Below are positions 12,719 to 64,000 of a stretch of DNA of 64,000 bases, in pieces. How positions within the stretch are numbered: position 1 is the stretch's first letter; each line of letters opens with the position of its first letter. The notes beneath the pieces are model-generated. The model saw nothing but the letters and a program-made list of their open reading frames with translations. It ran no database searches and was not told where the DNA came from. The position numbers and the translations under genes are program-made. Location of the stretch: positions 51,526 to 115,525 of the forward strand of contig CAVYVZ010000008.1 of assembly GCA_963772065.1 (NCBI GenBank). The letters are read 5' to 3'. Origin of the DNA: an uncultured Acidobacteriota bacterium. GTDB taxonomy: Bacteria > Acidobacteriota > Vicinamibacteria > Vicinamibacterales > UBA2999.

Positions 12719-14350
12719 GTGTCGCGTCTGCTTGCCGTGATGGCCGGTGTGGCCGGCATCGCAGCGTGGACGATGCACGCCCAGCGCGGGCTCGTTCTCA
12801 GTCACTACGACGCGAAGGCGCATCTCGTCGTCGCCCGCCGCGTCTTCGACAATCTCACGCCCGGCTGGCAGCAGATCGGCGCGGTGTGGCTGCCGCTGCC
12901 GCACCTGCTCAACATGGTGCCTACTCAGGTCGACTGGTTCTACCAGACTGGAATCGCCGCGTCCGCGCTCTCGATCCTGAGCTTCTGCATCTGCGCGTGG
13001 GCGACCGCTCGATTGGTCCTTGCGGTGACCGGGTCGGTAGCGGGCGCAGCCGCCTCGGCTGCCGTGCTCGCCCTCAATCCGAACGTCCTCTACCTCCAGG
13101 CCACGCCGATGACGGAGCCGCTGCTCCTCGCCTTGTCGTCGCTGGCAGTGCTGTGGCTGTTCGAGTGGGCGCAGACGGATCGAGACGACGTACCGCGGCA
13201 TCTCGGCCTGGCGCTCGCGGCGCTCGCCTGGACACGCTATGAAGGATGGGCCGTGATTGGCGCTGCCCTCGCTGCTGCGGCGTTCGCGACATGGCGGCGT
13301 GGCGCGTCAGCGCGCGTCGTGGCGATGCGCACGATGCGCCTCGCGTTATGGCCGGGTGTGGCCGTCATCGTGTTTCTGATCAACAGCCGGATCACTGTGG
13401 GCGCCTGGTTCGTGTCGGGCGGCTTTTACGTTCCCGATCCCACGTATCAAGGCAGGCTCGGGCGTTCGTTCGTGGCGATCTGGTGGGGCACGCACCAGTT
13501 GAGCGGCTATGTGATCGAGATCGTCGGGCTGGCCACGGCCGTCGTGCTGATCGCGCGCACGTTCGCCCGGCGGCAGGACGCGGCGCTGCTCCTGCCGACG
13601 GCGCTTCTTGCCGCCGCGGCGCTCCCGTTCTATGCGTTCTTCGAAGGCCACCCATATCGGATCCGCTACATGATGCCCGTCGTCGGCGCGTGCGCCGCAC
13701 TCGCCGGAATCGGCGTCGGGATGTTCGGGCGCAAGGCCGCCGCCCTGGGCTGGGTGCTCGCGATTGGGCTCGTGGCTGCGACCGTCATCGAATCACCGCC
13801 GTGGTCGCGTGACGCCCCGCTTCTGCTGGAGGCGCAGTGGGACCGCCCGAACAGCGCCGCCCGCCGCCGCGTGAGCGCCTGCCTCGCCGGCGAGTACCAG
13901 GGCGAAAAGATCCTCGCGAGCATGGGGTCGCTTGCGCACTACATGCAGGAGCTCTCGCATGAGGGCCTCGACATTTCTGATTTCGTCAACGAAGGGAACG
14001 GCGTGATCTGGGAGATGGCGCTCGAGACGGGGCCGGCGCCGCACGCGGGCTGGATGCTGGTGGAGGAGCAGGCGGAAGGCGGCGACGTTCTCGCGCAACT
14101 CATCCGCCAGCGCCCAAACTTTCTGGACGGCATGACGCGCACCTGTGACGGCGGTGGAGTCACTCTCTATCGTAAGGCAAAAGGCAAAAGGCAAAAGGTA
14201 AAAGGTAAAAGGCAAATGATGATTCCTACGAGTTGCATCGAAGCGAGCGTGCTGCTTCGAAGGCACTCGCGTGAATCACAATTTACCTTTTACCTTTTAC
14301 CTTTTGCCTTGTATCAACGTCCGAATCGCATACCGATGGTGAACGAGTAA
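12719..14350 (+). CDS. GT-C fold (ArnT/PMT-like) membrane glycosyltransferase; C-terminus encoded by repeat element
   Basis: About 10 TM helices then a soluble C-domain. Start GTG 12719 or ATG 12740/12674 (uncertain). No stop before the 14174-14310 element, so the ORF reads through it (KAKGKRQKVKGKRQ...FTFYLLPFAL) and ends inside the convergent gene. Confidence 0.6.
   Translation: MSRLLAVMAGVAGIAAWTMHAQRGLVLSHYDAKAHLVVARRVFDNLTPGWQQIGAVWLPLPHLLNMVPTQVDWFYQTGIAASALSILSFCICAWATARLVLAVTGSVAGAAASAAVLALNPNVLYLQATPMTEPLLLALSSLAVLWLFEWAQTDRDDVPRHLGLALAALAWTRYEGWAVIGAALAAAAFATWRRGASARVVAMRTMRLALWPGVAVIVFLINSRITVGAWFVSGGFYVPDPTYQGRLGRSFVAIWWGTHQLSGYVIEIVGLATAVVLIARTFARRQDAALLLPTALLAAAALPFYAFFEGHPYRIRYMMPVVGACAALAGIGVGMFGRKAAALGWVLAIGLVAATVIESPPWSRDAPLLLEAQWDRPNSAARRRVSACLAGEYQGEKILASMGSLAHYMQELSHEGLDISDFVNEGNGVIWEMALETGPAPHAGWMLVEEQAEGGDVLAQLIRQRPNFLDGMTRTCDGGGVTLYRKAKGKRQKVKGKRQMMIPTSCIEASVLLRRHSRESQFTFYLLPFALYQRPNRIPMVNE
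14174..14310. repeat. word-repeat hairpin element E1 (AAAAGGY heptamers / complement)
   Basis: Left arm 14174-14216 = 6x AAAAGG(C/T). Right arm 14282-14310 = 4x complement. Centre contains a nested hairpin CGAGT..TCGAAGC..GCTTCGA..ACTCG (14229-14269). Confidence 0.85.
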
Positions 14351-29226: not shown

Positions 29227-29559
29227 ATGATACCGGTTCAACGGCTGGTGCCGGAGGCGCTTGCCGAGGTGCTTCGAAAGGCGCCGCTGAGCGCCGAGAA
29301 GGTGGCATTCGCCTGGCGCACGGCCGTTGGTGCGTCAGTCGATCGGGTCAGCAGCGTTCGTCTGGATGGCCACACGCTGCGGGTCCGCGCCCGGGACGCG
29401 AGCTGGCAGCGCGAGATCGAGCGCTCGGCGTCGCTCATCTGCGCGCGTCTCGACGCGCTCCTGGGAAAGGATGTCGTCCGCGGTCTGGACGTCAGTTTGG
29501 GGTCTGGCCCCTATGGTGCCAGGTCTCCCCAAGAACCCTCAGGAGGCCTGGCACCATAG
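29227..29559 (+). CDS. DUF721 (DciA-like) protein; 3' end runs into hairpin E4
   Basis: [40 protein letters not shown] pattern typical of DUF721. Last about 20 aa encoded by the repeat. Confidence 0.6.
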
Positions 29560-29572
29560 GGGCCAGACCCCA
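29498..29572. repeat. perfect 26-bp inverted repeat hairpin E4
   Basis: TGGGGTCTGGCCCCTATGGTGCCAGG (29498-29523) / exact reverse complement (29547-29572). 23-nt loop contains AGGAGG. The last arm base is the A of the thiolase ATG. Confidence 0.9.
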
Positions 29573-30753
29573 TGAACGAGTCCGTCATCATCTCCGCCGT
29601 CCGCACGCCCACGGGAAAGTTCCTCGGCGCGCTGAAAGGGTTCACGGCGCCCGAGCTCGGCGCAATGGTGGTGCGCGAAGCCGTTCGCCGCGCCGGCATC
29701 GAGGCGCAGTCGGTGGAGGAATGCATCCTGGGCAACGTCGTCTCGGCTGGCCTCGGCCAGGCGCCGGCGCGGCAGGCCGCGCTCCGCGGCGGCCTCTCCG
29801 ATCACGTGGCGGCGCTCACGATCAACAAGGTGTGCGGCTCGGGCCTCAAGGCCGTGATGCTCGCCGCGCAGGGCATCGCCACGGGCGACATCGACATCGC
29901 GGTCGCCGGCGGCATGGAGTCGATGAGCAACTGCCCGTACCTGCTCACGCGCGTCCGCGACGGCTTGCGCATGGGACACGGCGAGGTGATCGACTCGATG
30001 ATCAACGACGGCCTCTGGTGCTCGTTCGAGCAGTGCCACATGGGACACGCCGGTGAGGTGATCAGCACCGAGTACAACATCGCGCGCGCACCGCAGGACG
30101 AGTACGCGTATCACAGCCACCGCAAGGCGGCCGAGGCGACGCGGGCCGGGCATTTCAAAGCGGAGATGCTGCCCATCTCGATCCCACAGAAGAAAGGCGA
30201 TCCGATCGTCATCGATGGCGATGAATCCATTCGCGCCGACACCACCGCTGAGAGCCTTGCCGCGCTGAAGCCGGCCTTCAAGAAGGATGGGACCGTTACC
30301 GCCGGCAACGCTCCGCCGGTCAACGATGGCGCTGCAGCCCTGGTGGTGATGTCGGCCGCGCGCGCGCAACAGCTCGGCGTCAAGCCGATGGCGCGCATCG
30401 TCGGCCAAGCCACGAGCGGTCTCGCGCCGAAGTACGTCCTGATGACACCGGTCGAAGCGGTGCGCCGCCTGTCGAAGAAGATTGGCTGGAAGCTCGAGGA
30501 CGTCGATCTGTTCGAGCTGAACGAAGCATTTTCCGTTCAAGCGCTCGCCGTGCTGAAGGAGCTCGGGATCGATTCCACGAAGGTGAACGTGAACGGCGGC
30601 GCCGTGGCGCTCGGCCACGCGATCGGTTCGAGCGGCGCGCGCATTCTCACCACGCTGCTGTACGCACTGCAGCATCGCAACCTGAAACGCGGGATCGCAA
30701 CACTTTGCCTCGGGGGAGGCAACGGTGTGGCGCTGGCGGTCGAACGAACTTAA
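29572..30753 (+). CDS. acetyl-CoA C-acetyltransferase (thiolase II)
   Basis: 393 aa; [12 protein letters not shown] active-site Cys, [26 protein letters not shown]. Confidence 0.92.
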
Positions 30754-30841
30754 CGTTCCAGGTTCCAGGTTCCCCGTTCCAGGTTCGTGTTCTTTGTTCG
30801 GTTCTCGGTTCTCAGTTCTCGGTTCTCGGTTCTTTGTTCGT
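30754..30841. repeat. left arm of four-helix-bundle cassette 1 (GGTTC-rich 7-nt words)
   Basis: Starts immediately after the thiolase TAA. Imperfect reverse complement of 31257-31349 (shared CCAGGTTCC..., GGTTCGTGTTCT...). Confidence 0.8.
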
Positions 30842-31136
30842 CCGTCACGTTGCATCGCCTGAGCGATGTAGCCGCGATCGACGGCGTCCCTCAGGTGCCC
30901 GCAACACTCCTTGAGCGAAGCGCGGGCGTTGACGACCATGCGTCCGAAATCTCTCGGGTAAAAGCGCGCGAATCCTTCCTCGATCTGGCTCACCGCCGAC
31001 GCGGCGGACTCACGCGTTGATCGCGGAGTTTGAAGTCAGCGGCGATGGAACTCGTCCCCACAACCTCGTACACCGCGAGTTTGAAGCGATACGTGAGCTG
31101 CCACGCTCGAAGATCCTCAACACGGCCGGCGGTCAT
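30842..31136 (-). pseudogene. four-helix-bundle protein (Avd / 23S rRNA IVS protein family), decayed copy
   Basis: MTAGRVEDLRAWQLTYRFKLAVYEVV...FKLRDQ | TRESAASAVSQIEEGFARFYPRDFGRMVVNARASLKECCGHLRDAVDRGYI. Frameshift at AA 31017-31018. Helix 4 is missing and the frame stays open through the arm (RTKNREPRTENREP...). Confidence 0.65.
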
Positions 31137-31256
31137 CCGATCCGCAAGTGCACATGGAATGCCGCGACGATCTGGGCCCGAATTCGCCGACAGGATGCCA
31201 AAGTACGCAGATTGCAAGCGCGTCAGCGTCAGTTCGGTACGATCAATTTGCGTCGA

Positions 31257-31349
31257 GACCAGAACCCCGAACCCAGAACCGCGAACCAAGAACCAAGAAC
31301 AGAACGCAGAACACGAACCCGGAACCTGGAACCGGGAACCTGGAACCGG
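31257..31349. repeat. right arm of cassette 1
   Basis: GAACC-rich words, reverse complement of 30754-30841. Ends 10 nt before the convergent sulfatase stop. Confidence 0.8.
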
Positions 31350-31358
31350 AGTGACGCG

Positions 31359-56803: not shown

Positions 56804-58137
56804 AGACATCACGAGTGATCTGGGCGGCCGCGTTCGCGCTCTCGCTGGGAGGGCCCGTGCTGGCTCAGCCCGAGCTCCGAGAGGAGCAGGCGCGGGAGCG
56901 CGAAGCGCAGGACCGCGAGCGGGAGCGGCGCGATCGGGAACGGGAGCAGCGGGATCGCGAACGCGAACAGAAGGATCGCCAACGCGAGCAGGGCGAGCGG
57001 GATCGCGAACGCGTCGAACGCCAGAACGACCTCTACGACGACGGCCAGGAAGCGCTCGATGATGGCGAATGGGACAACGCGGCGCGCTTGTTCGGAGAGT
57101 TCGCCGCGTTGAAGGGGCCCCGAACCGATGCCGGCCTCTACTGGAAGGCCTACGCACAGAACCGCCTCGGGCAGCGCGCCGAGTCGCTGCAGACGCTGGC
57201 GGAGTTGATCAAGGCCTACCCTGCCAGTCGTTATCTCCAGCAGGCGCGGGTGCTCGAAGTCGAAGTACGTCGGGACGCCGGCCAGCCGGTACGCCCCGAG
57301 AGCCAGAGCGATGAAGAGCTGAAGCTGATGGCCATTCAGGGGCTGCAGCACTCGGATCCCGAGCGCGCGATCCCGCTCCTGGAGGGCATCCTGCAGGGCA
57401 CCGGGTCGCCCAAGCTCAAAGGGCGCGCGCTGTTCGTGCTGGCGCAGATGAGCGAGCTGCGGGCGCGCACGGCGCTGGCGAACGTGGCCAAGGGCAACTC
57501 GCTTCCCGATCTCCAGGAGAAGGCGATCCAGTATCTCGGCGTCCACGGCGGGCGCGAAAACCGTGCGCTCCTCTCGGAGATCTATGCGGCCTCGAGCGAC
57601 GTCGGCGTCAAGCGGCGGGTGCTGAGGGCGTTCATGGTCGCCGGTGAAAAGGATCGCGTCATGGCGGCCGCCACCGGCGAGCAGAACGCGGAGCTCCGCG
57701 CCGAGGCGGTGCGACAGCTGGGCGTCATGGGCGCGCACGCCGAGCTCGCACAGCTCTATCAGAAGGAGCCCTCGGTCGACGTCAAGAAACAGATCCTGCA
57801 GGCGATGTTCGTCGGCGGCGACTCGAACCGGCTGATCGAGCTGGCCCGAAATGAGCCGAATGCGGAACTGCGACGGACCGCGGTGCGGAACCTGGGCCTG
57901 ATGGGATCGCAGCGGACCGGCCCGGCGCTCGTCGAGATCTACAGCAAGGAGAGCGACGCCGAGATCAAGCGAGCGGTCATCCAGGCGTTCTTCATCCAGA
58001 ACAACGCCGAGTCCCTCGTGGCGCTGGCGCGCAAGGAGCCGAAGAACTCCGAGCTGCAGCGTGAGATGGTGCAGAAGCTCTCTCTCATGGGGCGAAACAA
58101 AGTGGCCCTCGATTACCTGATGGAGCTGCTGAAGTGA
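56800..58137 (+). CDS. secreted HEAT-repeat protein with Arg/Glu-rich low-complexity N-region
   Basis: Signal peptide; (RERE/DRER) tract; repeated xxVRxxAxxxLG HEAT units. ATGA overlap with the anti-sigma stop. Confidence 0.65.
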   Translation: MKTSRVIWAAAFALSLGGPVLAQPELREEQAREREAQDRERERRDREREQRDREREQKDRQREQGERDRERVERQNDLYDDGQEALDDGEWDNAARLFGEFAALKGPRTDAGLYWKAYAQNRLGQRAESLQTLAELIKAYPASRYLQQARVLEVEVRRDAGQPVRPESQSDEELKLMAIQGLQHSDPERAIPLLEGILQGTGSPKLKGRALFVLAQMSELRARTALANVAKGNSLPDLQEKAIQYLGVHGGRENRALLSEIYAASSDVGVKRRVLRAFMVAGEKDRVMAAATGEQNAELRAEAVRQLGVMGAHAELAQLYQKEPSVDVKKQILQAMFVGGDSNRLIELARNEPNAELRRTAVRNLGLMGSQRTGPALVEIYSKESDAEIKRAVIQAFFIQNNAESLVALARKEPKNSELQREMVQKLSLMGRNKVALDYLMELLK

Positions 58138-58952
58138 AATTGCTCTTTGGCGTCGCATTCATCGCGTGTGCTCTCCCGTGCGCGGCGCAGCCGCTGCTCA
58201 AGAACGCGAAGGTGACCGACCGTGCTGTATCGGGCGCCCTCGACGCAACCGTCCGTTCGATTGCCGAGCAGATCACCGAGCCCGCATGGATCGCCTGGGA
58301 GACTCCGGCCGTGCCCAGGCGGCACGGCGACAACTGGTGCTGGAGCGATGGCGCCCTCGTGCAGTCCAATCGTCTCGAACCGGTCGACACGCTCTTCGTG
58401 TTCATGCGGCTCGAGAACCGCCGCATCGAACGGATCCGCACGTTCGACGACGGATGCCCGATCGACGCCGGGAACCGACCGGTCACGTGGCTCCGCGACG
58501 TGAAGCCGGCAGAGAGCGTGGCGCTGCTGACGGCGATAGCCGCGGGCCAGGCACCGCTCGCTGTTGCGGGCGAAGAGCACCGGGTGTCGAAAGGAGCGCT
58601 CGCCGCGCTGGCTCAGCACGCGGGACCGGAGGCCGTTCGACCGCTCATCCGGCTCGCTCGTCAGTCGCCCGAGCCGAAGCTCCGCGGCGAGGCGCTCTTC
58701 TGGCTGGCACAGCGCGCCGGCGGCGAGGCGAGCGCCGCGATTACCGACGCACTGGCAAACGACCCCGACACCGCCGTCAAGAAACGCGCGGTCTTCGCCT
58801 TGTCGCAGCTGCCGGCGAACGAGGGCGTGCCGAAGCTGATCGAAGTGGCGCGCAGCCATCAGAACCCAGCCGTTCGCAAGCAGGCGATGTTCTGGCTCGG
58901 TCAGTCGAAGGACCCGCGGGCGCTGACATTCTTCGAGGAAGTGCTCAAGTAG
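58134..58952 (+). CDS. secreted HEAT-repeat protein
   Basis: Signal peptide; PKLRGEALFWLAQ, TAVKKRAVFALSQ, PAVRKQAMFWLGQ repeats. GTGA overlap. Confidence 0.65.
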   Translation: MKLLFGVAFIACALPCAAQPLLKNAKVTDRAVSGALDATVRSIAEQITEPAWIAWETPAVPRRHGDNWCWSDGALVQSNRLEPVDTLFVFMRLENRRIERIRTFDDGCPIDAGNRPVTWLRDVKPAESVALLTAIAAGQAPLAVAGEEHRVSKGALAALAQHAGPEAVRPLIRLARQSPEPKLRGEALFWLAQRAGGEASAAITDALANDPDTAVKKRAVFALSQLPANEGVPKLIEVARSHQNPAVRKQAMFWLGQSKDPRALTFFEEVLK

Positions 58953-58995
58953 CGCCGTTTGACCCGTCGTAGCAGCCGTCGGTACTCTGTACGAA

Positions 58996-60039
58996 ATGCT
59001 CAGAGTGCTTTCGGTCATGCTTGTCGTGGTCCTGTCCGCCTGCTCGAAAGAGAACGCGGCATCGGCATCCGCCAACCCGGCATCTACCAACCCCGCGGCG
59101 AAGCAGAGCGCGCAGGCGCCCGCGGCTGGCGTCCAGCCCAAGCCGGTGCCGGCGCAGCTTCCCGACGTCATCGCGCGTGTCAACGGCGAGGCGATCGCCA
59201 AGGGTGACCTGGAGAAGGCAATCAAGAACGTCGAGGGGCGCGCCGGTCAGCCGGTGCCGGCCGCCGAGCGCGACCGCATCTATCGGGGCGTACTGGAACA
59301 GCTCATCGCCTACCGGCTGCTGAAACAGGAAAGCTCCTCGCGCAAGATCGAGGTGCCCGATGCCGAGGTCGATGCCCGCATGGCGCAGATCAAACAGCAG
59401 TTTCCCTCGGAGGACGTGTTCAAGCAGTCGCTCATCCAGCAGAACATGACGTTCGACCAGCTGCGCGAGGATGCGAAGAGCGACATGCGCGTCGCGAAGA
59501 TGCTCCAGGGCGAGGTCAATGTGGGTGTTGGCGTGCAGCCGCAGGACGTGACCGCGTTCTATGAGAAGAACCCGGACAAGTTCAAGCAGGGCGAGCGCGT
59601 ACGAGCGAGCCACATCCTGATCCGCGTCCCGGAGAAGGCGGATCCGAAGACGAAGGAGGAGGCGCGCACGAAAGTCGCAGGCGTCCTGAACGAGGTGAAG
59701 GCGGGCAAGGATTTCGGCGAGCTGGCGAAGAACTACTCCCAGGATCCCGGCAGCGCGGCCAATGGCGGCGATCTGGGCTACTTTGCCCAGGGCCAGATGG
59801 TCGGTCCCTTCGAGCAGGCGGCGTTTGCCCTGAAGCCCGGCGGGATCAGCGACATCGTCGAGACGCCGTTTGGCTTCCACATCATCAAGGTCGCCGACAA
59901 GCAGGCGGCGCGCACGGTGCCGCTCGATGAGGCCAAGCCGCAGATCGAGCAGTTCCTGCAGAATCAGCAGCGCCAGCAGAAAACCGAGGCTTTCATCAAT
60001 TCGCTGAAAGCCAAGGGCAAGGTCGAAATCCTCATTTGA
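58996..60039 (+). CDS. parvulin-type peptidyl-prolyl isomerase lipoprotein (SurA/PrsA-like)
   Basis: Lipobox LSAC; SurA_N-like region. PpiC domain RASHILI...GGDLGYF...PFGFHIIKV. Confidence 0.85.
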   Translation: MLRVLSVMLVVVLSACSKENAASASANPASTNPAAKQSAQAPAAGVQPKPVPAQLPDVIARVNGEAIAKGDLEKAIKNVEGRAGQPVPAAERDRIYRGVLEQLIAYRLLKQESSSRKIEVPDAEVDARMAQIKQQFPSEDVFKQSLIQQNMTFDQLREDAKSDMRVAKMLQGEVNVGVGVQPQDVTAFYEKNPDKFKQGERVRASHILIRVPEKADPKTKEEARTKVAGVLNEVKAGKDFGELAKNYSQDPGSAANGGDLGYFAQGQMVGPFEQAAFALKPGGISDIVETPFGFHIIKVADKQAARTVPLDEAKPQIEQFLQNQQRQQKTEAFINSLKAKGKVEILI

Positions 60040-60228
60040 GTCGTTCACGCTTCTGTGTTCTCTCTGCTCGGTTCGTGTTCAGGTTCGGTTCGGTTCGGTT
60101 CGGTTCGTCGTTCGCATTCATCGTTCGTCGTTCGGAGGCCCGAACCGTGAAGGTTCGAACCCAGAACCCGAACCGAACGATGAAGCTGAAGATGAACCGA
60201 GCAGAGAGAACGCAGAAGCGTGAACGAC
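60040..60228. repeat. ORF-less long hairpin element E8 sharing termini with cassette 2
   Basis: Outer 38 nt of the arms match 37/38 (GTCGTTCACGCTTCTG[T/C]GTTCTCTCTGCTCGGTTC). GGTTC words inside; apical CGAACC-GTGAA-GGTTCG. Begins 1 nt after the ppiC-like stop and contains the GTG start of the next gene. Confidence 0.85.
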
Positions 60229-60600
60229 GTACGCCTTGACGTGTGGCTGGATGTCGCCTGTCTTTTCAAGACCCGCTCCGAGGCGAAGCGGGCCTGCGAG
60301 GGCGGCAAGGTGGAGGTCAACGGCGAGCACGCGAAGCCGCACCGTGCCGTTCGCGAGGGCGACGAAATTCGCGTGAGCCGTGGATTCGGCCGCCACCAGA
60401 TCGTCGTCGTGCGCGGCGTCATGGACGCGCACGTGAAGAAGTCCGACGCCCGCACGCTCTACGAAGACCTCACCCCCCGACCCACGCCTGAAGAAGTCGA
60501 GATTCGCCGCATGGATCGCATCTATCGCGCGGCCGCCGCGGCCGCCGGCACCGATCGCCGCAAGCGGCGGGAGATTCGGAGTGCGAAGCAGCGATACTAG
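60220..60600 (+). CDS. S4-domain RNA-binding protein (Hsp15-like)
   Basis: VRLDVWLDVACLFKTRSEAKRACEGGKVEVNG S4 motif; basic C-terminal tail. Confidence 0.75.
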   Translation: MNDVRLDVWLDVACLFKTRSEAKRACEGGKVEVNGEHAKPHRAVREGDEIRVSRGFGRHQIVVVRGVMDAHVKKSDARTLYEDLTPRPTPEEVEIRRMDRIYRAAAAAAGTDRRKRREIRSAKQRY

Positions 60601-60601
60601 A

Positions 60602-60722
60602 CGTCGTTCACTCTTCTGAGTGCACGCTTCTCGGTTCGTGTTCAGCTTCGCCGTTCGATTCCTCGTTCGCGGTTCGCGGTTCGCGGTTCGTGGTTCTTGT
60701 TCTCTGTTCGGGGTTCGTGGTT
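60602..60722. repeat. left arm of four-helix-bundle cassette 2
   Basis: Starts 2 nt after the S4 gene TAG. (GCGGTTC)n words. 26/26 nt CGCTTCTCGGTTCGTGTTCAGCTTCG shared with the reverse complement of the right arm. Confidence 0.85.
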
Positions 60723-60838
60723 CCCAAATCCTGCGCGCCGCGATGCCTTCCCGCGTGGCAGATCTTCGCATCCGCGAAGTGCTTTGTGTGTTTTCAACCA
60801 GCAATCCGTGCGGCATTATCCGTGCACTATGAGTCCGC

Positions 60839-61395
60839 ATGGGAGTTCATCGTTTCACCGAATTGCGAGCGTGGCAGGTGTGCAACACCTACAAGCGAGC
60901 CATCTACCGGCTGTGCGCGGCCGGCGCGTTGTCGCGTGATTTTGAACGGCGAGACCAGCTCGAACGATCAGCCGCGAGCCGTGTGCGCATCTGTCGGAAG
61001 GGTTTGGTCGATTCAGCCCGCCAGATTTCGCGCGCTACTGCGTGATGGCGCGGTCGTCACTGATGGAGTCGCAGAACCACCTGATCGACATTGTCGACCG
61101 AGGCCACATCACCGAGGACGCGAGAGTCGAACATAATGCGATGGCCGAAGCGGCCCTCGAGGAAGTGACTGGCCTGATGGAGTACCTTCAGTCGCCCGAA
61201 GCGCTCCGAAATGCGCGTCGAGCGCGCGAACGGAGAATTGAGAACCGCGCGAAACGCGCGAACCAGGAACGCGAACCCCGAACCAAGAACCGCGAACCTC
61301 GAACAGCGAACCGCGAACCCCGAACAGAGAAGCGAACCCCGAAGCTGAACACGAACCGAGAAGCGAGAAGGCGAAGCGTGAACGACGACGAATGA
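60839..61395 (+). CDS. four-helix-bundle protein (Avd / 23S rRNA IVS protein family) with arm-encoded (NREPRTx)n tail; one apparent frameshift
   Basis: FTELRAWQVCNTYKRAIYRL / RRDQLERSAAS | PCAHLSEGFGRFSPPDFARYCVMARSSLMESQNHLIDIVDRGHI / AMAEAALEEVTGLMEYL. CC 60979-80 should be CCC to stay in frame. Stop directly after the right arm. Confidence 0.75.
61240..61387. repeat. right arm of cassette 2
   Basis: (GAACCGC)n words, reverse complement of the left arm. Terminus ...GTGAACGACG pairs with CGTCGTTCAC at 60602. Confidence 0.85.
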
Positions 61396-61410
61396 GATTA
61401 GGATGAGTAA

Positions 61411-62395
61411 GTGCCGCGCAACCAGGAAGTCATCCGGCAGTGGAAGGTGCTGCACGCGCTGGAGTCGTCGCGGCATGGCGCCTCCATCGACTCGCTCGGC
61501 GGGCGATCTCGAGGTGACGACGCGGACGATCCGGCGCGACCTGGCGGCGCTGCAGGAAGCGGGGTTTCCGCTCTTCGACACGCGCGACGAGGACGGCCGC
61601 GTGCGCTGGCGGCTCGACGGCCAGGTGCTCAAGGGCCTCGATACCGGCTTCACCCTCGGCGAGCTGTGCGCGCTCTATTTGAGCCGGAACCTCCTCGAGT
61701 CGGTCGCCGGCACACCGTTTCAGCGCGACCTCGGTCACGCCTTCGCGCGGCTTCAGGGGGCGCTCTCCCCTCGCATGCGTCAGTTTCTCGATCGGCTGCC
61801 TGGTGTGCTCGCGGCCAAGCCGGGGCCGCGCGCGCGCGGCGGCGAGGCGGCGTCGGACATCGTGGCGCGCCTCCTCGAGGCGACCCTGCACTTTCGCATC
61901 GCGACGATGCGGTATCACTCGGTATCGAGCGCGAAGATTAAAGACTATGTGATCCACCCATACCGTCTCGCGTTCGCGCAAGGCGGGCTGTACCTGCTGG
62001 CGTACGTCCCCGCGTACGAGGACGTGCGCACGTTCGCGGTCGACCGCATCAAGGCGGTGTCTCTCGAGAAGCAGACGTTCACGCCGCGTCGCGACCTGCC
62101 GGAAGACGTCTTCGCCAATTCGCTGGGCGTGAACACGGGGCCGCCCGAACGCGTGGAGATCGCCTTCGACGCGCAGATCGCCCCCTACATCCGCGCGCGC
62201 GTCTGGCACGCATCGCAGGAGCTGCGCGACGAAACCGACGGCGCGCTGACGCTCACGATGCACGTGTGTCACGATTGGGCGTTGCGAAGCTGGATCCTCA
62301 GCTGGGGCCCGTTTGCCCGTATCCTCTCTCCTGCAAAGCTTGCTGCCCAGATCCGCGAAGACCTCGACGCCGCGAAAGCGAAATATGGGCCATAA
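61411..62395 (+). CDS. HTH-WYL domain transcriptional regulator; apparent frameshift in the HTH
   Basis: GTG 61411 PRNQEVIRQWKVLHALESSRHGASIDSL | GDLEVTTRTIRRDLAALQEAGFPL, then WYL core (HPYRLAFAQGGLYLLAY) and a WCX-like C-terminus. Removing one G at 61498-61503 restores the frame. Confidence 0.8.
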
Positions 62396-62416
62396 GCCAT
62401 GAGCCGTAAGCCATGA
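62389..62416. repeat. tandem heptamers E10 (GCCRTRA x4) bridging stop and start codons
   Basis: GCCATAA GCCATGA GCCGTAA GCCATGA. Unit 1 holds the WYL TAA. Units 2-4 form a 5-codon mini-ORF (ATG AGC CGT AAG CCA TGA) whose stop overlaps the next ATG (62413). Confidence 0.8.
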
Positions 62417-64000
62417 ATAGACGTCCGCTTCGCTTCGCCATCCTCATCGCTGCCGGCCTGCTCTTCTTCCTTGGGCCGTCGATGCTCGGCTTCTACACCG
62501 ACTGGCTCTGGTTCGGCGAGCTCGGGTACCCGCAGGTGTTCACGACGATGCTGCGGGCACAGACGACGACGTTCACCATCGTGTTCGGGGTGTCGGCGCT
62601 GTGGCTGGCGGGGAATCTCAACGTGGCGCTGCGCGCGATCGGCGACGCGCGACCGGTGTTCACGACGCGCGAAGGCCTCGAGGTGGTGCTCCCCGGACGC
62701 CAACAGCTTCGCGGGATCGCGCTTGGCGTCGCGGGGGTCGTCGCGCTGCTCATCGGGTTGTACGCGTCGAGCCGCTGGCTCACCTGGACGTCGTGGTACC
62801 ACGCGGTTCCTTTCGGCCACGCCGATCCGATCCTCGGACATGATGTCGCGTTCTACGTGTTTTCCCTCCCGGTGCTGCAGATGGCCCGCGGGCTCGCGCA
62901 GGCGCTCGTCGTGCTTGCGGCGATCGGCTCGGGAATCGTGTACTTCGTGTCCGGGACGCTCGGTGCGGGCTTCGGAACCGCAATCCGCGTGTCACCCGGC
63001 GCGCGCCGCCATCTCGCCGCGCTTGCCGTCGTCTTCTTCGCGCTGCTCGCCTTCGGCGCGTGGCTCGGACGGGCCGAGCTGCTGACGGGTCAGTCCGGCA
63101 TCATTCACGGCGCCTCCTATGCGGATGTGCACGGGAGAATGCCCGCTGCCCTGGTGCTCATCGCTGCGGGTGTGGTCGGCGCCGGCCTGGCCGCGTATCA
63201 GGCGGCGGTGGCGCGCAAGTGGCCGATTGCCGCGGCGGTGGCGCTCTACGCCGTGGCATCCGCGGCGGGCGAAGGCTACAGCACGCTCCTTCAGCGCTTC
63301 GTCGTCACGCCGAACGAACAGGCGCGCGAGTCGCCGTACATCCAGCACAACATCACCGCCACTCGCCGTGCCTTTGCGCTCGATCAGGTCGAGGCGCGTG
63401 AGCTGTCCGGCGACGATCGGCTGACGCGCGACGATATCGCGCGGAACGCGTCGACGCTGGACAACGTGCGCCTCTGGGATCACCAGCCGCTGCTCGACAC
63501 GTTCGGGCAGCTTCAGGAGATCCGCACCTACTACGACTTCGCCTCCGTGGACAATGACCGCTACATGGTGAGCGGAGCGATCAGGCAGGTGATGCTCTCC
63601 GCGCGAGAGTTGAATTCCAACAGTCTGCCGAATCGAACGTGGGTCAACGAGCGGCTGATTTTCACCCACGGGTATGGGCTGACTCTCGGTCCTGTCAACG
63701 AGGTCACGGCCCAGGGCCTGCCGGTGTTGTTCATCCGCGACCTGCCACCGCAAAGCGTGGTCGCCGACCTTCAGGTGAACGAACCGAGTATCTACTTCGG
63801 CGAGCTCTCGAACGACTACGTGGTCGTCCGCACGCGCACGCGTGAGTTCCACTACCCGAAGGGCGACGAGAACGTCTTCACGTCCTACCAGGGGCGGGGC
63901 GGCGTATCCCTGGGCTCGCTGTGGCGAAAGGTGATCTTCGCGCTGCGGTTCGGCGCGTATCAGATCGTCCTCAGCGACGACATCACCGCCGAGAGCCGGA
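62413..64000 (+). CDS. UPF0182 (COG1615) family membrane protein; 3' end outside window
   Basis: Own translation from ATG 62413: about 7 N-terminal TM helices, then PNEQARESPYIQHNITATRRAFAL...LWDHQPLLDTFGQLQEIRTYYDF...ERLIFTHGYG, characteristic of UPF0182. Confidence 0.8.
   Translation, partial: MNRRPLRFAILIAAGLLFFLGPSMLGFYTDWLWFGELGYPQVFTTMLRAQTTTFTIVFGVSALWLAGNLNVALRAIGDARPVFTTREGLEVVLPGRQQLRGIALGVAGVVALLIGLYASSRWLTWTSWYHAVPFGHADPILGHDVAFYVFSLPVLQMARGLAQALVVLAAIGSGIVYFVSGTLGAGFGTAIRVSPGARRHLAALAVVFFALLAFGAWLGRAELLTGQSGIIHGASYADVHGRMPAALVLIAAGVVGAGLAAYQAAVARKWPIAAAVALYAVASAAGEGYSTLLQRFVVTPNEQARESPYIQHNITATRRAFALDQVEARELSGDDRLTRDDIARNASTLDNVRLWDHQPLLDTFGQLQEIRTYYDFASVDNDRYMVSGAIRQVMLSARELNSNSLPNRTWVNERLIFTHGYGLTLGPVNEVTAQGLPVLFIRDLPPQSVVADLQVNEPSIYFGELSNDYVVVRTRTREFHYPKGDENVFTSYQGRGGVSLGSLWRKVIFALRFGAYQIVLSDDITAESR

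Follow-up and report, generated by a model that had tools for sequence, protein, structure and literature searches.

A non-coding foldback hairpin at a PPIase–S4 gene junction in a Vicinamibacterales genome probably belongs to a dispersed insertion family related to PF05635 cassettes

The 64,000-nt stretch of an uncultured Vicinamibacterales (Acidobacteriota) genome analysed here, which we refer to as the window, contains a compact foldback hairpin at the junction of two genes. To its left is a SurA-like peptidyl-prolyl isomerase (PPIase) gene on the + strand (58996–60039), the product of which has PF13616, PF00639 and SurA_N domains, and to its right, also on the + strand, is an S4-domain, Hsp15-like gene (60220–60600; PF01479, with a weak Hsp15 match). 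The hairpin itself is 189 nt long, has no open reading frame (ORF) and no assigned strand, and occupies positions 60040–60228. Beyond the S4 gene lies a longer element, cassette 2 (60603–61386, likewise without a strand), in which inverted arms of about 120 nt (approximately 60603–60723 and 61259–61386) surround an ORF of the PF05635/TIGR02436 four-helix-bundle family, annotated as '23S rRNA IVS protein' (60839–61395, + strand). A WYL/WCX helix-turn-helix regulator gene (61411–62395, + strand) follows, and is the conserved right-hand neighbour of the S4 gene in relatives. The S4 gene is therefore bracketed by two related elements, as an earlier interpretation of the same DNA (the sequence-only reading) had pointed out. 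That reading took the hairpin to be a derivative of cassette 2 akin to a miniature inverted-repeat transposable element (MITE).

The hairpin starts without any spacer: the PPIase TGA stop is at 60037–60039 and the next base is the first base of the element, and its right arm contains the GTG start codon of the S4 gene (60220), the coordinates agreeing with the earlier description in both respects. The sequence runs from GTCGTTCACGCTTCTG at the start to CAGAAGCGTGAACGAC at the end, and as RNA it folds into one long hairpin with a minimum free energy of -128.5 kcal/mol, compared with -64.3 ± 4.5 kcal/mol for shuffled sequences (z = -14.3; 0 of 200 shuffles are as good). The fold has 37 consecutive basal pairs, two of them G.U, and the S4 start codon is paired inside this stem. 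The arm match of 37/38 given previously holds if the two G.U pairs are counted, but when only Watson-Crick pairs are counted the outer arms match at 16/16, 34/35, 35/38 and 43/47 positions over successively longer segments. The left terminal module of about 48 nt (60040–60087, + strand) is delimited by a family consensus and by metagenome depth, both described below, and the right terminal module (60181–60228, - strand) is its inverted copy, the final 9 nt of which, GTGAACGAC, are codons 1–3 of the S4 gene (M-N-D). The interior (60088–60180, no strand) is variable and is not conserved across family members; it consists of GGTTCG/CGAACC word arrays and an apical CGAACC-GTGAA-GGTTCG stem-loop at 60141–60157, and here both sequence and fold bear out what had been reported. 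No credible ORF is present, and the element is thus short, non-coding and bounded by terminal inverted repeats (TIRs), as a MITE should be.

The termini are shared with cassette 2, as had been claimed. The 16-mer GTCGTTCACGCTTCTG is present at 60040 (+) and 60213–60228 (-), and it recurs with 1–2 mismatches at both cassette 2 ends (60603 on the + strand and 61371–61386 on the - strand), where about one terminus match is expected by chance at up to 3 mismatches; a second 16-mer, CTCGGTTCGTGTTCAG, is found exactly at 60067, 60630 and 61345–61360 (-). In a 1.4-kb fold the hairpin and cassette 2 each pair with themselves and not with one another, and an alternative pairing that would loop out the S4 gene (60170–60230 with 60601–60661, 82% complementary) was rejected. 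A search of Rfam at permissive E-values yielded no family for the hairpin, and there is no rRNA or other Rfam match within 57000–64000. Neither a terminator U-tract nor sigma-70-like promoter sites are present at the hairpin, and an intrinsic terminator or promoter was rejected on these grounds. A conserved untranslated region (UTR) or riboswitch was rejected both from the Rfam result and because most orthologous junctions are empty, as detailed below.

The wider terminus search that the sequence-only reading had proposed shows that these ends belong to a dispersed repeat. We searched contigs from one genome per species with the pattern GTCGTTCACNCTTC(N11-15)CTCGGTTC, which has 21 specified bases, and it matches at least 119 stretches in more than 20 metagenome-assembled genomes (MAGs), with at least 19, at least 21 and at least 12 loci in three single MAGs. 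The at least 119 matches listed are from Vicinamibacterales and other Acidobacteriota MAGs, apart from one oddly binned contig and two Nocardia matches, both of which are without the GGTTCGTGTTC core and were dismissed as chance. The loci of the listed stretches (denoted, like the other loci below, by L numbers) contain 234 arms, and 73 inverted arm pairs lie within 400 nt, most spanning 100–280 nt (range 66–344 nt), with folding energies between -42 and -228 kcal/mol. A consensus drawn from 177 arms reads GTCGTTCACnCTTCTnggTTCTCgcTtCTCgGTTCGTGTTCAgGTTCgg; the 48-nt terminal modules begin GTCGTTCAC, and past about 48 nt the copies diverge into word arrays. In many elements (including L053, L045, L098 and L102) the 7-nt words TTCTGGG and TTCTCAC, at arm positions 11–32, are swapped in order between the two ends, so that the terminal stem has conserved mismatches and the two types of end can be told apart. 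With its two like ends, the window hairpin is unusual.

Metagenomic reads define the same module. In four soil and freshwater metagenomes the depth over 60029–60109 is 70–626 as compared with 0–50 in the flanking genes, such that the terminal module is 30–100x deeper than its flanks, with the best run covering at most 22% of the words of the window strain; the left module reaches a depth of 626, as against 5–50 beside it. Exact look-ups of the S4 and PPIase proteins gave no hit, and no RNA run was found to contain the hairpin sequence. Dozens of metagenome contigs break exactly at 60040 and at 60086–60091, which are the two edges of the module. No similarity was found in PLSDB plasmids or INPHARED phages, and the pattern has no match in IMG/VR; as far as sampled, the family is confined to Vicinamibacterales and related Acidobacteriota. 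Literature searches returned no prior description of dispersed PF05635-flanking repeats or of hairpin repeats in Acidobacteria, and the foldback hairpin family is previously undescribed. That the window hairpin is of the same family as cassette 2 is upheld, whereas its derivation from that particular cassette is not: copies in other MAGs resemble its arms more closely (about 38/40 for L015) than cassette 2 does (85%). Arm similarity thus assigns the hairpin to the family at large and not specifically to the adjacent cassette.

Comparison of orthologous junctions indicates that the hairpin is inserted DNA. A metagenome scan with the S4 protein recovered 80 orthologous loci, 61 of which have the PPIase gene upstream, and we measured the gap from the PPIase stop to the projected S4 start. 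At 42 of the 61 loci the gap is -4 to +7 nt and the genes abut or overlap (GTGA overlaps, TGA-GTG and similar arrangements). Ten others have gaps of 14–30 nt by projection, with a longer S4 N-terminus and no hairpin, and three have gaps of 40–47 nt containing other word repeats. Hairpins occupy the remaining six, with gaps of 100–194 nt; those of L135, L155, L177, L182 and L185 are of this family and that of L152 is of another word family. The PPIase–S4 junction of L171 is also filled by a family copy. An empty site is seen in the close relative L121 (S4 82.5% identical), which reads ...ATCTGA-GCGTC-GTGAACGAA-GTACGT..., and metagenome contigs of relatives skip the hairpin, joining 60032–60041 to 60228–60244. 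In a neighbour-joining tree built from S4 together with the PPIase C-terminus, filled sites are interspersed among empty ones and represent at least four separate clades (the window, L155, L135 and L177/182/185). The family copies at this junction in other lineages are decayed, with folding energies of -0.39 to -0.50 kcal/mol per nt versus -0.68 here. The terminus is therefore neither unique to the two window loci nor part of a conserved orthologous UTR, which together were the conditions under which the sequence-only reading would have been refuted. The window hairpin is a young ORF-less copy inserted at an operon junction, in the 0–5-nt spacer between PPIase and S4 genes that normally abut, and against the native S4 start. 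A pair of sister lineages presents a further contrast: L135 has a 104-nt family hairpin in which both arms have changed together from the consensus, and the L137 junction has just 30 nt of spacer containing remnants that resemble the ends, possibly the footprint of an excision.

The position of the S4 GTG within the right arm is correct, as noted above, but the codon is not carried by the element. In empty sites the S4 gene mostly starts with GTGAACGAC or a one-base variant (GTGAGCGAC, GTGGACGAC), often after CGC, and the start codon is therefore native. More distant S4 orthologues, which lie in other gene contexts, differ at the N-terminus, but ATGAACGAC again opens one of them. The sequence GCGTGAACGAC is both the native S4 start context and the consensus right end of the element, and the window and the other filled sites have a single copy of the shared 9–11-mer, so that the inserted DNA is effectively 60040–60219. 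The junction thus mimics the terminus of the element. Such mimicry would help to explain the repeated hits at this junction, for example through annealing-based or terminus-recognising integration. Word hairpins unrelated to this family are found at the junction too, and similarity to the terminus therefore cannot be the sole director of insertion.

These data also bear on whether the elements move at all, since slippage or template switching at gene boundaries could generate word palindromes in situ time and again, with gene conversion between loci then homogenising them. The interiors are indeed simple repeats of variable length, and many unrelated word families (GGTTCC, AAAGGY, GGTTACAGG, GAGGATT, GGGATTT, CCAAAG) occupy the same kinds of junction in relatives. 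We nevertheless regard an in situ origin as highly improbable, because it does not account for a specific 48-nt module with a non-repetitive order and a sharp outer boundary, present as more than 200 arms in more than 20 MAGs, nor for the PF05635 gene travelling with the module, nor for the interleaving of filled and empty junctions on the tree.

The family has long as well as short forms, and the likeness to a long and short pairing of an insertion sequence (IS) with its MITEs, drawn in the sequence-only reading, is real. Long versions (700–750 nt) are rare. Terminus pairs 695–753 nt apart (L013, L027 and L105), together with L093 and L121, encode PF05635 proteins 70–87% identical to that of the window, and thus combine the same termini with the same gene as cassette 2. 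All eight of the PF05635 genes in the DNA examined are enclosed by inverted arms, and a MAG has about one cassette alongside tens of hairpins. In L090 (500 nt) only PF05635 codons 1–70 are kept and are joined directly to the right arm, and this copy is an internal-deletion intermediate. Other long pairs enclose unrelated genes, with arms matching over 55–80 nt in two of them: family arms bracket a PAS histidine kinase gene in L031 (2998–4711) and a Ser/Thr kinase gene in L029 (516–1659). PF05635 is thus not the only cargo that family arms can enclose, and which form gave rise to the other is not strictly proven. That the cassette is 'autonomous', the term used in the sequence-only reading, is likewise unproven for a PF05635 cassette.

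The cassette 2 ORF is split by a 1-nt frameshift near 60976, and a metagenome contig from run X1 that is 98–99% identical has an extra C after 60976 which restores the frame. The frame-repaired protein scores 56.6 bits against the PF05635 model (Pfam cut-off 33.8), similar to the L121 and L027 proteins (56.9 and 58.9 bits), and 49.5 against TIGR02436 (cut-off 24), and it matches PDB 2GSC (Xanthomonas XCC0516) with E = 6e-5; on these profile and structure matches we classify it as a bona fide PF05635/TIGR02436 member. The PF05635 ORFs of the window (61230–61395), L013, L027, L105 and L121 run on through the right arm, and the GAACC-type words of that arm are translated into low-complexity C-terminal tails (…NREPRTKNREPRTANREPRT…) that end just past the element. 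Single-base frameshifts are apparent near ~61497 (at a GGG run in the WYL gene) and near ~30990 (in a second PF05635 gene) in addition to that near ~60976. Because the WYL gene and the PF05635 gene of a second cassette are also singly frameshifted, this suggests that assembly indels are as likely an explanation as true pseudogenes. Cassette 2 is missing from most S4–WYL junctions of relatives. In L121 the same PF05635 cassette (400–1160), here with an intact ORF, directly follows the S4 stop but its interior is reversed, reflecting either inversion between the arms or an independent insertion.

The copies are located in very short intergenic spaces. A stop codon lies 0–15 nt from one end in 32 of the 73 paired copies. 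In 19 tandem contexts the upstream stop is 0–29 nt before the left end (median 7 nt) and the callable downstream starts are from -9 to +45 nt relative to the right end, the majority no more than 20 nt away. Few copies (2 of 73) occupy divergent spacers that would bear promoters. Such tight placement after stops, with copies spanning stop-to-start intervals, raises the question of whether the hairpin is a domesticated RNA element, that is, an intergenic module for mRNA processing or stability (an RNase III site, a 3'-end protector or a stop–start coupling device) kept for regulation of operons such as PPIase–S4. The stems are very stable, the two conserved end types provide fixed internal mismatches in the terminal stem, and by analogy the stems of rRNA intervening sequences (IVSs) are cut by RNase III (PMC4990558). 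Signs of selection at the RNA level are nonetheless lacking where they were sought: sense and antisense strands do not differ in folding energy or G.U counts (n = 51, p = 0.9), G.U does not exceed A.C on the transcribed strand, and the elements are oriented at random with respect to neighbouring genes (13 vs 11, using the two end types as a polarity marker). Nor is there a U-tract, and most orthologous junctions lack the hairpin while old copies decay. We thus consider a domesticated RNA quite unlikely. Placement, unbiased orientation and decay fit selfish or neutral DNA tolerated at gene boundaries, and not a selected RNA structure. When arms are compared with their own and with shuffled partners, those within an element show no greater identity than those from different elements, again giving no sign of RNA-level selection. 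Inverted symmetry extends weakly into the flanks of the 73 copies.

A second possibility concerns the enzymology, namely that these are elements of the repetitive extragenic palindrome (REP) or REPIN type, that either a RAYT (IS200/IS605-like Y1) transposase or a different HUH enzyme, for instance an IS91-like one encoded elsewhere, acts in trans to move them, and that the four-helix-bundle gene is only cargo. IS91-type elements insert next to GTTC/CTTG without duplication, and the elements of the window family are built of GTTC words. The lack of target-site duplications, the palindromic structure, the high copy number, the extragenic positions near stops and the ability of the arms to bracket unrelated genes would all suit such a mechanism. 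No RAYT, Y1 or HUH gene was seen in the at least 119 8-kb loci or the window region, about 0.9 Mb of flanking DNA, in which ORF translations were read and no profile search was made. PF05635, moreover, is the sole gene recurrently enclosed, and the units are of 100–280 nt with 48-nt termini, unlike the 20–40-nt REPs with GTAG or CGTC tags described in PMC3733652. Mobilisation of this type seems unlikely.

Taking these observations together, we consider it probable that the hairpin belongs, as a non-autonomous copy without an ORF, to a high-copy foldback insertion family that is kin to IVS-type PF05635 cassettes. The original observation is real, and its MITE-like interpretation is supported as essentially right, with four corrections. 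Several points weigh against this explanation. The comparison of flanks for target-site duplications (2–9 nt) that had been suggested was negative, none of the 73 copies having a direct repeat of 3 nt or more at its ends. The earlier remark that a transposase is absent still holds: reading of ORF translations, with no profile search, revealed no recurrent transposase between or beside the termini, whether in ORFs between long-range terminus pairs or in those adjoining 46 unpaired termini. These are ordinary genes with two exceptions, an IS1595-like and an IS630-like gene lying beside or between termini, which look like secondary insertions. The direction of derivation is not proven, and either cassettes give rise to hairpins or hairpins capture genes, as with the kinases of L031 and L029. 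Word-hairpin families with different termini are present at the same junction (L152, L122, L120 and L158), gene calls in the family loci relied on a crude filter of GC content at third codon positions, and neither a transposition event nor strain-level polymorphism has been directly observed for the window copy.

A plausible scheme for the foldback insertion family is that short forms arise from long ones through internal deletion, and that the elements spread as DNA by means of a function, acting in trans or provided by the host, which recognises the terminus or anneals to it. They would be selfish or neutral DNA, with insertions tolerated only at gene boundaries just past stop codons. On the PPIase–S4 transcript the 37-bp basal stem would be expected to sequester the S4 start codon. 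In the modelled fold this codon pairs with the nine bases after the PPIase stop, and so would be held beside that stop; a ribosome terminating at 60037–60039 could melt the stem base and free the S4 GTG, and reinitiation could follow. Coupling of stop to start may thus survive a 189-nt insertion. The stem is also a candidate for a canonical RNase III substrate, by analogy with IVS stems.

Word-repeat DNA of other kinds is present in the window and at related loci. A second inverted-repeat-flanked PF05635 cassette (30735–31350, gene on the - strand) directly follows the stop of a thiolase gene; its arms are of GGTTCC/GGTTCT words, it has only the GGTTCGTGTTC core in common with the family of the hairpin, and its ORF is split across two frames. 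An ORF-less hairpin of about 123 nt at 14188–14310 has AAAGGC/AAAGGT (AAAGGY) word arms (-69.7 kcal/mol, z = -9.7) and is a third word-hairpin family in the window. In a 75-nt hairpin at 29498–29572 (-72.6 kcal/mol, z = -10.8) the arms are 31 nt long and complementary at 97% of positions, the right arm ending at the ATG of an acetyl-CoA acetyltransferase gene, and no copy of it was found in 199 loci. Word arrays or hairpins are also seen at the PPIase–S4 and S4–WYL junctions of relatives (L152, L122, L120, L158, L176, L157/L166, L171, L191 and L193), with words including GGTTACAGG, GAGGATT, GGCACTGAG, GGGCTGAG, CACGAA, CCAAAG, GGGATTT and CTCATAA. It appears that word-repeat DNA is generally characteristic of the intergenic regions of Vicinamibacterales.

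The association of PF05635 genes with such arms extends to plasmids of other bacteria. Only two PF05635 genes were found in PLSDB plasmids, 31–34% identical to that of the window and both cyanobacterial. In the Nostoc plasmid NZ_CP046706 (L200, 1445–1910) the gene lies in inverted GGGAAAA-word arrays that start 4–6 nt after an upstream stop, and in the Pseudanabaena plasmid NZ_CP112875 (L201, 1254–1954) it is between cas6 and cas4 in inverted AGCTTTT-word arrays, the arms starting at about the end of cas6 and an ORF-less hairpin adjoining. PF05635 genes wedged between cas genes have been noted before (PMC3936711). That both plasmid genes have the same architecture built from other words supports the generality of the cassette class. 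It is conceivable, if doubtful, that PF05635 genes with word-repeat inverted arms constitute a widespread, unrecognised class of mobile cassette, in which the protein is the element's own mobility or maintenance factor and which spawns ORF-less hairpins at operon junctions after stops; the classical 23S rRNA IVSs, with or without an ORF, would then represent the copies inserted into rRNA genes.

Two questions have stood open since 1990–93: how bacterial rRNA intervening sequences originated and what their conserved ORF does. A mobile-element origin has been proposed but never shown (PMC4990558). Here the ORF-plus-stem architecture is seen to behave like a transposable family, with tens of copies per genome, empty and filled sites, deletion intermediates and many ORF-less progeny. 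This behaviour makes the mobile-origin hypothesis directly testable, and the family offers a concrete handle on where 23S rRNA intervening sequences come from. It also reveals that long palindromes have systematically colonised intergenic DNA in Vicinamibacterales, a soil order of high abundance. These palindromes interrupt short-read assemblies and are able to mask start codons and to enclose entire genes. Some caution in annotation is also warranted, as genes for a 'four helix bundle protein' within operons, cas operons included (PMC3936711), may be insertions and not members of the operon.

The family can be compared with several known classes of repeat. It agrees with MITEs in size, TIRs (arms 43/47), copy number and the existence of empty sites, but differs in having no target-site duplication and no transposase-encoding parent, its long partners encoding PF05635 instead. 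The Correia/NEMIS elements of Neisseria and the ERIC/IRU elements of enterobacteria are short, non-coding, TIR-bounded MITEs that are dispersed, form hairpins, are mostly intergenic and are co-transcribed, whereas the present elements have interiors made of variable short-word arrays and are 66–344 nt long. The resemblance to REP/REPIN–RAYT systems is of a high-copy extragenic palindrome accompanied by a low-copy gene flanked by the same repeats inverted, again with no target-site duplication and with copies near stop codons; the flanked gene here, however, encodes a four-helix-bundle protein with no match to a HUH/Y1 motif family. The present repeats are also much longer than REP units, and are without the GTAG or CGTC tag by which those 20–40-nt palindromes are characterised in PMC3733652.

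Eukaryotic Foldback (FB) transposons have long inverted arms of tandem short subrepeats with conserved outer ends, are variable in length and are mostly non-coding. Our family shares the arm architecture and the occasional bracketing of unrelated genes (as in L031 and L029), but the host is bacterial, there is no target-site duplication, the enzymology is presumably different and the scale is much smaller. The PF05635 family was first found inside 23S rRNA intervening sequences, and these provide a further parallel. The elements described here are located between protein genes and not at helix 25 or 45 of 23S rRNA, the window hairpin being at the PPIase–S4 junction, and they differ further in numbering tens of copies per genome and in having 48-nt conserved termini followed by word arrays. 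A complementary stem, with or without a PF05635 ORF, is nonetheless present in the hairpin and in cassette 2 alike. As in the IVSs with an S23p/PF05635 ORF of Leptospira and Coxiella burnetii, the pairing of complementary termini gives a long stem that surrounds a small four-helix-bundle ORF, short ORF-less versions exist in both, the ORF tends to decay, and both have been regarded as selfish.

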